Positions 21,640-25,892 of a stretch of DNA of 64,000 nt are shown piece by piece (the first letter of the stretch is position 1; each line of letters begins with the position of its first letter). The stretch comes from Candidatus Xenobia bacterium. Its GTDB lineage: Bacteria; Vulcanimicrobiota; Xenobia; Xenobiales; QWHO01. A model generated the notes under the pieces. It ran no database searches. It was given only the letters and a program-made list of their open reading frames with translations, and was not told the DNA's origin. A program made the position numbers and the translations under genes. The stretch lies in assembly GCA_045863235.1 (NCBI GenBank), contig BTUM01000001.1:32001-96000 (forward strand), written 5' to 3'.

Positions 21640-22200
21640 ATGATCCCAGTGCTGAAGCGGATTACGGCAGAGAGACAGTTCGAGCTTTTTCCCGGAGCCA
21701 TGCCATACGTTTCGCAGGGAGATGCGGCTCGCGCACTTGGTCAGGATGATGCAGGCAAAGACATCACCCCTCGCATCATTCAATATTGGGAGAGCCAGGG
21801 TCTCCTTCATCCAGAGCTCCCCGTGGAGGGTCGTAGCCGACGCTATACGCAGCAAGACCTGGTGGAGCTCAAGTTTATCAAAACGCTGGTAGTGGATCAG
21901 GGTTACACGGTGCCTTCGCTAAAGGCCAAGCTGGCCAGTTTGGAGGCGCCCTACTACTACGACCCGGCCGATTGTTTCTGGGACCTACCGTCCCAGAGCT
22001 GGAAGAGTCGCAGCGACCTGGCGGTGGAGCGTCTTTCGCAAGTCCGCGAGCAATTGGAGAGTCGCACCATCCAGGCCCTGGAGCGGCTCCTACCAGGGGA
22101 CTTGAAGAGAGCTGTTCGCGCCCTGCTCGACCTGGTACGCGATGCTCTGGAAGGGAAGGCGCTGGCTCCCGCCCGTCGTGCTCCTCGTCGCAAGGGTTAG
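21640..22200 (+). CDS. MerR-family HTH protein
   Basis: 'ITPRIIQYWESQGLLHP...RSRRYTQQDLVELKFIKTL..QGYTV'. Confidence 0.85.
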   Translation: MIPVLKRITAERQFELFPGAMPYVSQGDAARALGQDDAGKDITPRIIQYWESQGLLHPELPVEGRSRRYTQQDLVELKFIKTLVVDQGYTVPSLKAKLASLEAPYYYDPADCFWDLPSQSWKSRSDLAVERLSQVREQLESRTIQALERLLPGDLKRAVRALLDLVRDALEGKALAPARRAPRRKG

Positions 22201-22268: not shown

Positions 22269-22919
22269 TCAGTCGAAGTCGCTTTCGCCGGTCAGAAGAA
22301 TCTTGCCTGGCATCAGCTCCACCGGCTCTCCCTGGCTGCAACTGGGATCCTGGCAGGCTCTGGTCAGGTGCAGGACCAGTGCCTCGGGGTCAGTTGCGTC
22401 GGGGTGTTGACTCTGGACGCGGTCGGCGTAGACGTGTAGCCATTTCTGGATCGCCCGGCCGGGGCCGTCCTCGTTCCGCCCAACGACCTTGAGCCGGTCC
22501 ACTTCTCTTGGGCCCCACAGATCGACGAAGTTTTCCAGGGCACGCACGGCCCGAGCGCGATCAAGGCCCCGCAGATCGACCCCTGGAATGCCTGCCGGAG
22601 CTGGCAAACTCGGCGCCTTGTGACGGGCCAGGGGGGCGAAAGCCGTATCCTCGATGCGAGTTTTCTGGGCACGGACCTCGTCTGGCCCGGGGTCGTAGTC
22701 CACCAACCGTACGCCGGAGATCTCCGGATAGTAACGCCGGAACGTTCCTTCGATGGCCTTGAGCATGAAGGCGATGGGCGCTCCCGGACCGCTGCGACGA
22801 GCCTTCAGCTCGATCACGGCATCCTCGTCAACTCGGCTGAGCTGCAGAGTCAGCCCCTCGCGCTCGGCAGCAGGGCCAAGGCGGTCGAGAATCGACCCTA
22901 CTCGCTCCAAATCGATCAA
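22269..22919 (-). CDS. hypothetical protein: degenerate NifU-like N-domain plus Smr-like C-domain
   Basis: 'ERVGSILDRLGPAAEREG...IEGTFRRYYPEISGV' is NifU-like without CxxC; 'VDLRGLDRARAVRALENFV' is Smr-like; 4-nt overlap with upstream gene. Confidence 0.65.
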   Translation of the reverse strand: MIDLERVGSILDRLGPAAEREGLTLQLSRVDEDAVIELKARRSGPGAPIAFMLKAIEGTFRRYYPEISGVRLVDYDPGPDEVRAQKTRIEDTAFAPLARHKAPSLPAPAGIPGVDLRGLDRARAVRALENFVDLWGPREVDRLKVVGRNEDGPGRAIQKWLHVYADRVQSQHPDATDPEALVLHLTRACQDPSCSQGEPVELMPGKILLTGESDFD

Positions 22920-25015
22920 GGGGCTACCTGAACTCCCGACTTACTCGCTCCCACTTCCGCCTTCTCCTTGTGCACCAGCCCGAGATTCATTCGGCCGTGG
23001 GTGAGGTAGGTCTCGTGCTTTTCTTGCACCGACATCTCGAAGTTGGAGGTGAAGGCCAGCGACTTGGTGGGACAGGCCTCGGTGCACAATCCGCAGTAGC
23101 AGCAGCGAGACAGGTCGATGGAGTAGATCTCGGGATACTCAAATCCTTCCTTGTTGACTGGAGACTCGAGATAGATACAGGCGTCCGGACATGCGTCCAC
23201 GCAGACTCCGCAACCCACGCACATCTCGGCCGCGCATCCGTAGCAGCGTTTTCCCTCGCGCTGAGCCATCTCCAGCGAAAAGCCGATCTCGACCTCGTCG
23301 AACGTCTTGATTCTTACCTCGCCCGGGATCTTGGGCTGAGGAACCTGATAGTTCATCGCCCGGAAAGGCTTCTCTTGAGGTTCCACATTCCACGGCTCGT
23401 GATGGTCGAAGTTGACAGCAGGAGGATCCTTGACCATCGACAGGCCGTGGAACTCGCGCTGTACGACCCCCGAGGACTCAGTCGGCATGGTGCCGTCCAC
23501 ATAGGGCGTCAATCCTACAACCGTGTCGTTCACCTTGTCCTTGAGCTGATAGGGGTAGAGGAACGGGAAGTTGCCCGGTTTCACCCCGTGCTTCTCGGCG
23601 ATGGCCAGGCAGCAGCGGTCGGACTGACCGATGGCATTGATGATGGTGGAGACGGTCACGATGTCCCCACAGGCCCACACCTTGCCGTTTGCGCGGGTTG
23701 TCTTGCCGCTTTTTTCGTCCACCACGATGGTTCCGTTGCGCCGGCGCTTGACATCGGAGGGAACCCAGGGCACGTCCACCTCGCGGCCCAGCGCGGTGAT
23801 GATCATGCCGCACTCCAGCACCTGCTCCGAGCCGGGGATCGGTACCGGTTTGCGTCGTCCCGAGCTGTCCTTGTCCCCGAGACGATTCAGGACCACCTTC
23901 ATACCCTTGAGCTGGCCATTCTCGATGACGATCTCATCGGGGGCGGTCAGCCACATGATGTGGACGCCCTCCTCCTCGCCGTCTTCAATCTCCTCTTCTT
24001 CGGAAGGCATCTCCTTGCGGGTGCGGCGGTAGATCATGGTGACTTCGGCCCCCATGCGTCGGCAGGTGCGGGCGCAGTCGAAGCCAGTGTTGCCTCCCCC
24101 AACCACCACCACCTTGTCGGGAACCTTGGTGAGCCGGCCCATCAGCTGCTCTTCAAGAAAGTCCTCGCCGTACCAGACCCAGGGCTTCTCCTCGTTGGGG
24201 AGTCCTAGATGGTAAGGTTTCCAGGCACCGGCCGCGATGATGACCTCGTCGTGGCGTTCTTCGAGCTCCTCAAACATCAGGTCCTGACCGATCTCGGTAT
24301 TGACCTGCAGGGTAATGCCGTCGAGGAAGTGGATGCGCTCCATCTCGCCATGGACCACGTGGCGGGGAAGCCGGTAAAGGGGGATACCCAGCGTCAGGAA
24401 GCCACCGGGCACGGATTTGGCCTCGTAGATGTGGCAGGCAAAACCCCACGAGCGGAGCAACATGGCGCACTGGTAGCCAGCCGGACCCCCGCCGATGATG
24501 CCCACCGACTTTCCATTGAGGGGGGCCCTGGTGCAATAATCCTCGTAACTGAAGCGCTCCTCGGGACTCAGGGTCATCTCCCAGTCTGAATAGACGCGCT
24601 TGAGCTTGCGGATGGCGATGGGCTGAGGCCCGGTGAAGCCGCGCGAGCAACGCTTCTCGCAGGGGGCGGGGCAGACTCGACCCAGCGTGGCCACGAACGG
24701 ATAGGTCTTGCGCAGCATCTCCAGGCCCTCACGCCAGCGGGCTTCGCCCGCCAGGGAGACATAACCGCGAGCGTCGGTATGGGCGGGACACCCTTCGGTG
24801 CAGGGCGCCCAACGGGTGCCGTGGTACCAGTCTGCTTTCTCGGAGATGGTTTGCTCGGTGTGAAAGTCGACCATGCGGAGCATACCACGTGAATTTGCGG
24901 GAATCTTGTCATGCTGCCAGGGGTACTGCACGGTTTCGGTGGGCCGGCGGAAGTTTCGCAGCGTGACCTTCATTCCCGTGAGGATGGCTTTCATGTTGTC
25001 GAGAAGGGTTGGCAT
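22916..25015 (-). CDS. NuoI-like Fe-S subunit fused with a GltD/SudA-like FAD/NAD(P)H oxidoreductase
   Basis: NuoI-like start GMKVTLRNFRRPTETVQYP...SRG; PCTEGCP, GRVCPAPCE, GGGPAG, GGGNTGFD, YRRT; C-terminal CVGCGVCVDACP and RCCYCGLCTEACP. Confidence 0.85.
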   Translation of the reverse strand: MPTLLDNMKAILTGMKVTLRNFRRPTETVQYPWQHDKIPANSRGMLRMVDFHTEQTISEKADWYHGTRWAPCTEGCPAHTDARGYVSLAGEARWREGLEMLRKTYPFVATLGRVCPAPCEKRCSRGFTGPQPIAIRKLKRVYSDWEMTLSPEERFSYEDYCTRAPLNGKSVGIIGGGPAGYQCAMLLRSWGFACHIYEAKSVPGGFLTLGIPLYRLPRHVVHGEMERIHFLDGITLQVNTEIGQDLMFEELEERHDEVIIAAGAWKPYHLGLPNEEKPWVWYGEDFLEEQLMGRLTKVPDKVVVVGGGNTGFDCARTCRRMGAEVTMIYRRTRKEMPSEEEEIEDGEEEGVHIMWLTAPDEIVIENGQLKGMKVVLNRLGDKDSSGRRKPVPIPGSEQVLECGMIITALGREVDVPWVPSDVKRRRNGTIVVDEKSGKTTRANGKVWACGDIVTVSTIINAIGQSDRCCLAIAEKHGVKPGNFPFLYPYQLKDKVNDTVVGLTPYVDGTMPTESSGVVQREFHGLSMVKDPPAVNFDHHEPWNVEPQEKPFRAMNYQVPQPKIPGEVRIKTFDEVEIGFSLEMAQREGKRCYGCAAEMCVGCGVCVDACPDACIYLESPVNKEGFEYPEIYSIDLSRCCYCGLCTEACPTKSLAFTSNFEMSVQEKHETYLTHGRMNLGLVHKEKAEVGASKSGVQVAP

Positions 25016-25034: not shown

Positions 25035-25892
25035 TCAACCGCTTTCCTGCGCCATCTGGCGCAGCAACGACAGGTTGACCGCGTGCATGGTTTCGTGTTC
25101 AGGAGTCTCCAGGATCATCGGGATCGCCGCGAGTCGGTGGTCAGTCACCAGGCGGCGGAAGCCCTCTCGGCCAATCTCGCCCTGCCCGATGTGGGCGTGG
25201 CGATCCAGGCGGCTGCCGAGCGGTTTCTGAGAATCGTTCAGGTGCAGAGCCCAGAGGCGTTCAAGGCCGATCAGGCGGTCGAACTCTTTGAAGGTGCGCC
25301 GATAGCCCATCGAGGTCCTCAGGTCGTAGCCAGCTGCATAAACGTGGCAGGTGTCCAGGCAGACCCCCAACCGCGCGCTCCCGGTTCGGCTCAGCACCTC
25401 GGCGAGGTGCTCGAACCGGTGCCCCAGGCAGTGGCCCTGCCCGGCCGTGGTCTCCAGGAGGAGAGGGAGCGGTGGGGTGGCTCGCAGCACTTGCTTGAGT
25501 CCGCGGACGAAGCAGGTCAGGCCGCTCTTTTCTCCACGACCCAGGTGCGAGCCCATGTGCAGTACCAGACCGTCCAGACCCAGTTGATAGCAGCGCTCGA
25601 CCTCGTCAGTCAGAGATTCGATCGAGCGTGCGTAAACAGTCGGATCCTGGGCAGCCAGGTTGGTGAGATACATGTCGTGGGCCAGCACGGCGGGCCGTCC
25701 GGATGACTCGCGCTCGGCTCGGAAGGCCTGTACTGCGGCCATGGTAAGGGTCTTCCCCTGCCAACGGGCCGGAGCTCGAGTAAAGATCTGCAGGCAGTCG
25801 GCACCGATGGCTCTGGCGCGCTTGAAGGCTCGGGCAAGTCCGCCGGCAGCCGAGACATGGGCACCGAGCGGGGGGCTCACTCCAGCAGCCAC
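25035..25892 (-). CDS. nfo: endonuclease IV
   Basis: LGAHVSAAGG, LETTAGQG, CLDTCH, HLNDS, DRHAHIG, ILETP. Confidence 0.95.
   Translation of the reverse strand: MAAGVSPPLGAHVSAAGGLARAFKRARAIGADCLQIFTRAPARWQGKTLTMAAVQAFRAERESSGRPAVLAHDMYLTNLAAQDPTVYARSIESLTDEVERCYQLGLDGLVLHMGSHLGRGEKSGLTCFVRGLKQVLRATPPLPLLLETTAGQGHCLGHRFEHLAEVLSRTGSARLGVCLDTCHVYAAGYDLRTSMGYRRTFKEFDRLIGLERLWALHLNDSQKPLGSRLDRHAHIGQGEIGREGFRRLVTDHRLAAIPMILETPEHETMHAVNLSLLRQMAQESG

Follow-up and report, generated by a model that had tools for sequence, protein, structure and literature searches.

Complex I without NuoEFG and related flavoproteins

The NuoI subunit of complex I (NuoI/Nqo9/TYKY; in Escherichia coli, 7awt_I) consists of an amphipathic helix at the N-terminus, marked by YP and RG motifs, and of a 2x[4Fe-4S] domain. 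For complexes of 11 subunits (NuoABCDHIJKLMN), which lack NuoEFG, no designated partner was found (PMC3144371); ferredoxins have been proposed as the donor in Desulfitobacterium (PMC11238625), and such complexes have been reported in Dehalococcoidia, the accessible parts of the reports leaving an insert in NuoI unremarked (PMC4959651, PMC5736913). In the Mbx-like operons of Thermotoga and proteobacteria, a gltD-related flavoprotein substitutes for NuoI as NAD(P)+ site (PMC4758237). Here we analyze a 64,000-nucleotide window of the genome of a Candidatus Xenobia bacterium (Vulcanimicrobiota; contig BTUM01000001.1, positions 32,001 to 96,000), in which one gene (22916..25015, reverse strand) encodes a protein of 699 residues, hereafter NuoI*, that is a NuoI with an inserted flavoprotein cassette of the GltD/StnC type.

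NuoI* shares with canonical NuoI both the N-terminal helix with its YP and RG motifs and the ferredoxin domain (46–48% identity with the E. coli protein across some 70 residues), and its relatives can occupy the nuoH–nuoJ gene slot. It differs in having about 545 residues before the first Cys motif, in its total length (699 residues vs. 189 for the canonical NuoI of the same genome), and in that its gene has moved out of the operon in the class. The cassette resembles StnC (Sporomusa StnABC, 8oh5_C) and NfnA (NfnABC) by its permuted order, Lys ligand, flavin-side Arg and YRR motif; however, the cassette of the latter two is part of a NuoG/HydA-like chain that feeds a soluble bifurcating module, whereas that of NuoI* is built into NuoI and would deliver its electrons to a quinone site and a proton pump. 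NfnB/SudA (5jca_L, 4ylf_B) and GltD (6s6s) have the same cassette fold (Z 25–28) but are colinear and carry a Glu instead of a Lys at the proximal cluster, and their partners, NfnA or GltB, do not adjoin the NuoI* gene. PRK13984, which we take to be the protein of the Thermotoga Mbx-like operons, is an end-to-end fusion with the ferredoxin (profile 50–142) ahead of GltD (193–598). The Mbx-like GltD subunit also sits in the NuoI position and is a proposed NAD(P)(H) site (PMC4758237) but belongs to an Mrp-type Mbx operon, whereas the partner of NuoI* would be a true NuoABCDHJKLMN set. Unlike the 11-subunit complexes mentioned above, one containing NuoI* would have its donor site built in. A split NuoI in a true complex I was not found in a literature search that left subscription journals mostly uncovered, nor is one noted in the accessible text of PMC8097209, PMC13399641, and PMC11484240. 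Judging from the sequences, the view that a complex with a split NuoI would represent a complex I variant that is new, and for which the Mbx-like operons provide a partial printed precedent, is well supported.

A NuoI Interrupted by a Flavoprotein Cassette

The NuoI* reading frame begins with ATG and contains no internal stop. All its parts lie on the reverse strand: residues 1–50 (24866..25015) comprise the amphipathic helix, the YP and RG motifs and the first strand of NuoI; residues 67–476 (23588..24817) form a GltD-like core with an FAD and an NADP(H) Rossmann fold; residues 477–554 (23354..23587) are a variable linker, at which the homologs encoded by two genes are broken (alignment; loci L070–L075); residues 555–595 (23231..23353) are a permuted GltD head, delimited by alignment to NfnL and by conservation, and ending in C591 and C594; and residues 596–699 (22916..23230) bring back NuoI, with its 2x[4Fe-4S] domain and a conserved E660.

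An earlier reading, made from the sequence only, had likened both termini to NuoI, and separate profile searches agree with it. Residues 1–50 scanned alone matched eight NCBIfam families, all eight being NuoI, with weak scores (E-values 0.002–0.064), and no Pfam family; for residues 594–699, the four top NCBIfam families were all NuoI (E-values 3.5e-22 to 1e-17), ranking above HycF/HyfH (7e-16) and FpoI (1e-12). Residues 1–44 align without gap to residues 1–44 of the canonical NuoI of the same genome (36% identity, pairwise E-value 6e-10), and residues 597–679 to its residues 56–151 (39%), which indicates that no more than the short loop ahead of the first Cys motif has given way to the insert. 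The N-terminal helix, seen at residues 2–23 of the AlphaFold model, has a hydrophobic moment of 0.62 (95th percentile, 0.49). The middle of the protein is GltD/NfnB-like (PF14691, PF07992; TIGR01316, E-value 3e-80), and contains every GltD motif that the sequence-only reading had named.

Conservation was examined in a 50-row alignment, of which 44 rows are full-length and six stop ahead of the ferredoxin. Fifteen Cys, K139, R215 and the YRR motif (residues 329–331, in the NADP(H) Rossmann fold) are conserved in all 44 full-length rows, as are R387/R388 of the same fold, with a single Lys at 387. The cluster ligands of the core are C72, C76, C115, C119, C123, and K139; C591 and C594 of the permuted head, both present in 44/44 rows, would supply the remaining ligands of the cassette's distal cluster; and the C-terminal part holds C599, C602, C605, C609, C638, C641, C644, and C648, its two CxxCxxCxxxCP motifs (C599–C609 and C638–C648) again being found in every full-length row. 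Among the 120 matches listed, at least 53 homologs span at least 90% of NuoI* at 40–98% identity, and in 54 of 58 close rows the two ferredoxin motifs come after the GltD motif. Moreover, each of the two junctions is spanned by contigs of public runs (X2 record 6, X3 record 13; X5 record 20, X3 record 11). Full-length homologs and these contigs rule out an assembly artefact, and the splitting of NuoI by the cassette is confirmed as real. What the RNA runs X3 and X5 contain of the gene are contigs, which do not demonstrate transcription, and a scan for promoters and terminators at the gene gave results at chance level.

The Cassette Is Circularly Permuted

The sequence-only reading placed a GltD-type module inside NuoI; the module is there, but it is a circularly permuted GltD, not a colinear one. 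Residues 6–48 of Pyrococcus NfnL align with NuoI* 555–597, whereas NfnL 48–466 aligns with NuoI* 68–472. The top solved relatives by sequence are NfnA (9bov_A, 9n5u_A) and StnC (8oh5_C), with E-values of 1e-91 to 9e-81, and the AlphaFold model of NuoI* (pLDDT 90.7, pTM 0.88) compares with the NfnA/StnC chains at Z 33–35 (VIA-align Z 35.0 to 9bov_A and 8oh5_C). Two Rossmann folds, seven Cys plus the Lys ligand, and the permuted head, by which a module of the StnC/NfnA type is recognized, are all present. Searches with the whole model listed only flavoproteins among their matches, which has no bearing against NuoI. Counted on the alignment, K139 corresponds to K170 of StnC and R215 to R239, while Ala82 stands where StnC has C114.

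We presume that the distal cluster is bound by C591/C594/C72/C123, the proximal one by C76/C115/C119/K139, and N6a, the entry cluster of NuoI, by C599/C602/C605/C648. As a consequence of the permutation, the two ends of the cassette meet at the distal cluster, so that C594 lies five residues before C599, where the NuoI ligands begin. Both N6a and N6b are carried by NuoI (PMC10212512). In StnC, K170 ligates the cluster beside FAD, where NfnB has a Glu, and the FAD oxidizes NADPH without bifurcation (PMC10482914). Likeness to StnC, through YRR and K139, points to NADPH specificity and a non-bifurcating FAD in NuoI*. We thus infer a non-bifurcating flavin, and it is quite probable that NADP(H) is preferred over NAD(H).

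Several established families were considered and rejected. Glutamate synthase GltD and NfnB (SudA) are colinear and have a Glu ligand, whereas the cassette is permuted and has a Lys, and NuoI* scores below their cut-offs (TIGR01316, 279 vs. 472; TIGR01318, 222 vs. 483). In PRK13984 (275 bits vs. a cut-off of 946), the ferredoxin does not come after GltD as it does in NuoI*, and the score against PRK12771 (384 bits) is under the cut-off of 516.

A Second Complex I Operon Lacking nuoI

The genome bearing the NuoI* gene (97.6% complete) contains three NuoD-family loci. Complex 1 is a full 14-subunit set, with nuoA–H on contig C31 and nuoI–N on contig C71; it thus has its own NuoEFG and a canonical NuoI of 189 residues, above the curated cut-off. 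The canonical operon is broken between nuoH and nuoI, with unrelated DNA past nuoH. The third locus, on contig C69, is a presumably Ehr/Hyf-like cluster with its own fused ferredoxin/small subunit, and NuoI* was rejected as a subunit of that cluster because it encodes its own ferredoxin subunit.

The remaining locus, operon 2 (G000:C1:350615-361029), lies beyond the window, 294 kb from the NuoI* gene, which is indeed outside any nuo operon, as the sequence-only reading had stated. Its gene order is nuoA-B-C-D-H-J-K-L-M-N, with one opposite-strand ORF between nuoK and nuoL, and nuoJ begins where nuoH ends. Neither nuoI nor nuoEFG was found in it. A complex I without NuoEFG, as had been proposed, is encoded, including nuoBCDH; the genes whose absence had been asked about are missing from operon 2 only, both NuoEFG and a canonical NuoI being present in complex 1. 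As both termini score best as NuoI, none of the sequence-level outcomes that would have counted against the sequence-only reading occurred. NuoB, D, H, K, and L of operon 2 pass curated Nuo cut-offs; A, C, and J have their best matches with Nuo families, under cut-off, and M and N were assigned by translation and similarity. NuoB2 has the tandem Cys, and NuoD2 the quinone-site motifs GPQHP and DRLDY. RxxC and DxCxxC are the NiFe motifs that the large subunit carries in group 4 hydrogenases and Mbx; NuoD2, unlike these, contains neither. When a NuoI N-terminal profile was run against all ORFs of the genome, only NuoI* and the canonical NuoI matched. Futalosine-pathway genes are present, which points to menaquinone as the quinone. 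The opposite-strand ORF (G000:C1:355231-355750) contains an HExxH motif and is presumably metallopeptidase-like.

Relatives in and outside the Class

Eight loci belong to other classes of the same phylum, and in four of them a NuoI* homolog occupies the nuoH–nuoJ slot of an operon without nuoEFG, either as a single chain of 632 residues (G002) or as two genes (G005, G013, and G035). In the others, the homolog is found between nuoC and nuoJ (G004) or standalone (G001, G008, and G015). One of the slot-bearing operons (G035) starts with hemL, a polyprenyl synthase gene and nuoA, as operon 2 does. In the class or close to it, on the other hand, the gene is standalone in 22/22 loci (overlapping sets of 10 and 12), and the slot is empty: of 20 in-class regions surveyed, 18 include nuoH as well as nuoJ, and in every one of these the two genes are no more than 201 bases apart, with no nuoI or nuoEFG match. 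Because the slot is empty across the class and occupied in other classes, we read the position of the NuoI* gene outside the operon as the result of relocation.

Across 44 genomes of the class, the NuoI* gene and NuoD2 occur together in 29 and are both missing from 12, whereas two have the gene only and one NuoD2 only; presence of the gene thus tracks NuoD2 in 41/44. In seven genomes of one family (f2), there is one NuoD, the sole NuoI-like match at E ≤ 1e-14 is the NuoI* homolog, and the query used for NuoG turned up no ortholog. In families f1 and f3, the complex of operon 2 is accompanied by a canonical complex I. Out of 80 metagenome GltD-like loci, three join a NuoI N-terminus to GltD, and these same three are the only ones adjoining nuo genes. 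In two of the three (L106:2652-5669 and L107:3300-6311), as in P0424, NuoH and NuoI* are encoded in one frame of about 1005 residues. Identity of NuoI* correlates with that of NuoD2 (rho 0.88, 28 genomes), which reflects shared ancestry and is not taken as support.

Homolog records are labeled Vulcanimicrobiota or Ca. Eremiobacteraeota, except three close ones labeled Burkholderiales, probably mislabels. In the two-gene forms (L070–L075), the first gene encodes the NuoI N-terminal part and the GltD core (476–527 residues) and the second the permuted head and the NuoI ferredoxin (144–187 residues); in L073 and L075, the two halves are separated by a low-complexity acidic/basic ORF. One stop is reported inside each of the matches at G048:C7 and G052:C13 (L049 and L050), but their open frames of 710 and 715 residues indicate that it is probably at the gene end. 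In G060, a futalosine-pathway menaquinone gene (PF02621; G060:C1:2754699-2755472) lies directly downstream of the homolog.

Proposed Role and Alternatives

We propose that NuoI* is the dedicated NuoI and electron-input module of complex 2, which would be a proton-pumping NADPH:menaquinone oxidoreductase, a reading to which we give a probability of roughly 0.65. That it assembles into complex 2 as the NuoI subunit is, from the comparative evidence, very probable. Lacking the usual NADH-oxidizing subunits, complex 2 probably draws its electrons from NADPH via NuoI*, and the empty slot, the tracking of NuoD2, and the presence of NuoI* as sole NuoI in seven genomes argue for a dedicated subunit. 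The two NuoI parts would refold around the cassette and occupy the place of NuoI on NuoB/C/D/H. NADPH would give a hydride to the FAD of the cassette, from which single electrons would pass to the proximal cluster with its Lys ligand, on to the distal one and, by way of N6a and N6b, through N2 on NuoB to menaquinone, while the NuoH/A/J/K/L/M/N arm would pump protons. A single chain with FAD and four [4Fe-4S] clusters would in this way stand in for NuoEFG plus NuoI.

A number of observations weigh against this proposal. The NuoI* gene is distant from operon 2 and lies among unrelated genes. Its NuoI parts score under the curated TIGR01971 cut-off (13.6 and 74.8 bits vs. 113), as does the whole protein (75.5 bits), which fails by TIGR01971 or PRK05888, models that were built for an uninterrupted chain. 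Judged from its fold only, the C-terminal domain does not separate NuoI from FwdF (Z 8.3 vs. 8.1): 42 of 50 rows are NuoI-type chains, FwdF being tied at the top, and the fragment model has a pLDDT of only 64; in the whole model, residues 21–40 have a pLDDT near 60. Two genomes carry the gene without a NuoD2-type match (G106, 65% complete, and G090), one carries NuoD2 without the gene (G094, 78% complete), one has the gene and no NuoD match (G001, 62% complete), and in two genomes of family f4 (G040 and G108; L090, L092) nuoB is missing between nuoA and nuoC of operon 2. The co-occurrence counts include kin, which are not independent, and hence overstate the support. NuoF-like genes were present in five of five single-NuoD genomes tested, so that an alternative input module is conceivable. 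Finally, some distant homologs have a His at the position of K139 and no YRR, which suggests that the nucleotide may differ in them.

The same complex could also work in reverse, the proton gradient driving electrons from menaquinol to NADP+ and so providing NADPH for biosynthesis. We consider this possible though unlikely, and the forward direction, from NADPH to quinone, the likelier of the two. Direction cannot be told from the sequence, the GltD-like subunit of Mbx-like operons has been taken as an NAD(P)+ reduction site (PMC4758237), and families f1 and f3 keep complex 2 beside a canonical complex I; on the other hand, complex 2 is the only complex I found in the seven f2 genomes, and GltD-like modules usually take electrons from NAD(P)H and hand them on to a partner (PMC8097209). 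The distribution of PntB, not found in three of five genomes tested but present in the other two (G000 and G040), does not settle the question.

It is improbable that NuoI* is the NuoI of complex 2 with a flavin that prefers NADH, bifurcates or exchanges electrons with ferredoxin, NADPH not being the main donor. NADH-dependent enzymes of the GltD type are known (PMC8097209), R215 corresponds to the flavin-side Arg of NfnB and StnC, and Ala replaces C114 of StnC; however, YRR and R387/R388 are retained as described above, the nearest solved relatives are NfnA/StnC chains, the Lys ligand is that of the non-bifurcating StnC and not the Glu of NfnB, and no NfnA-type partner gene was seen adjoining the NuoI* gene.

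The sequence-only reading had suggested a swappable subunit. In such a role, NuoI* would take over from NuoI and NuoEFG within the canonical complex and toggle the membrane arm between NADH and NADPH. Despite separate transcription of the gene from both operons and the 36% identity of its N-terminal part with canonical NuoI, this idea does not hold up well and appears very unlikely: complex 1 is already provided with a NuoI and with NuoEFG, the gene persists and follows NuoD2 where complex 1 was not found, and homologs reside in the type-2 operon. Least likely of all is a soluble NADPH:ferredoxin-type oxidoreductase descended from NuoI* that no longer associates with complex I, or else a role as subunit in the C69 cluster, for although the gene is standalone and its cassette with a 2x[4Fe-4S] tail resembles PRK12771, such a role would leave operon 2 without any NuoI, conservation extends to the NuoI N-terminal part, a fused ferredoxin/small subunit already exists in the C69 cluster, and the gene is absent from 12/12 class genomes without a NuoD match.

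Breadth and Origin of the Split NuoI

A profile of the junction was matched from position 14 or earlier by 27 sequences among the 150 representatives listed; 17 sequences were inspected, of which P0234 was a false lead. Their sources include Ca. Subteraquimicrobiales and Actinomycetota. In P0143, the cassette occupies another NuoI site, between the two Cys motifs, which are about 500 residues apart in 107 of 120 relatives; seven rows are named Chloroflexota or Dehalococcoidales. Cassettes inserted into NuoI do not group together in a tree of the GltD core, and a single origin of all of them was rejected by the AU test (p 0.006; 42 rows against 37 in a quick LG+G4 tree, three long rows excluded, test run after inspection of the tree). 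As to whether the two-gene forms arose by fission or preceded a fusion, neither scenario is favored (SH-aLRT 89–93 in a quick tree of 82/83 rows). P0058 has a degenerate NuoI N-terminus, and P0136 a shortened cassette, seemingly without most of the NADP(H) domain.

Taken together, we lean toward the existence of a hitherto undescribed, self-fed class of complexes I of 11 genes, without NuoEFG and with an NADP(H) site in NuoI, which arose more than once through a mobile permuted cassette and would act as proton-pumping NADPH:quinone oxidoreductases or, reversed, as gradient-driven sources of NADPH. In this joint scenario, which is somewhat more probable than its negation, the cassette would have entered two loops: in Vulcanimicrobiota, Actinomycetota, and certain metagenome lineages the one ahead of the first Cys motif, and in Dehalococcoidia the one between the motifs, the product being sometimes encoded by two genes or fused to NuoH.

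Neighboring Genes

Overlapping the stop codon of the NuoI* gene is an ORF of 216 residues (22269–22919, reverse strand) with a weak likeness to the NifU C-terminal domain, without CxxC, and a Smr-like domain, both below the bar for naming; in genomes of f1 and f2 it comes after the NuoI* gene, an arrangement that the f3 loci seen do not share. Just upstream of NuoI* (25035–25892, reverse strand) is an Endonuclease IV gene, above cut-off, which is not part of the system since it is missing from the close relatives L027 and L030. A MerR-type regulator (21640–22200, forward strand) faces the NuoI* gene and is retained beside the homolog in most in-class loci.

Significance

The electron donor of complex I without NuoEFG is a standing question (PMC3144371, PMC11238625), and a donor site within NuoI itself makes it testable on one protein of 699 residues. 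Homologs are labeled "FAD-dependent oxidoreductase" or "glutamate synthase beta subunit-like," so that their operons look broken, and the reading of NuoI* as a NuoI corrects such annotations. The findings also point to an input module that has been replaced repeatedly through domain insertion. If our proposal is correct, NuoI* would belong to a proton-pumping complex I that runs on NADPH, with a wire shorter than that of the canonical enzyme, of FAD and five clusters, and it would be a hard-wired answer to how an 11-subunit complex I is fed with electrons in these lineages.

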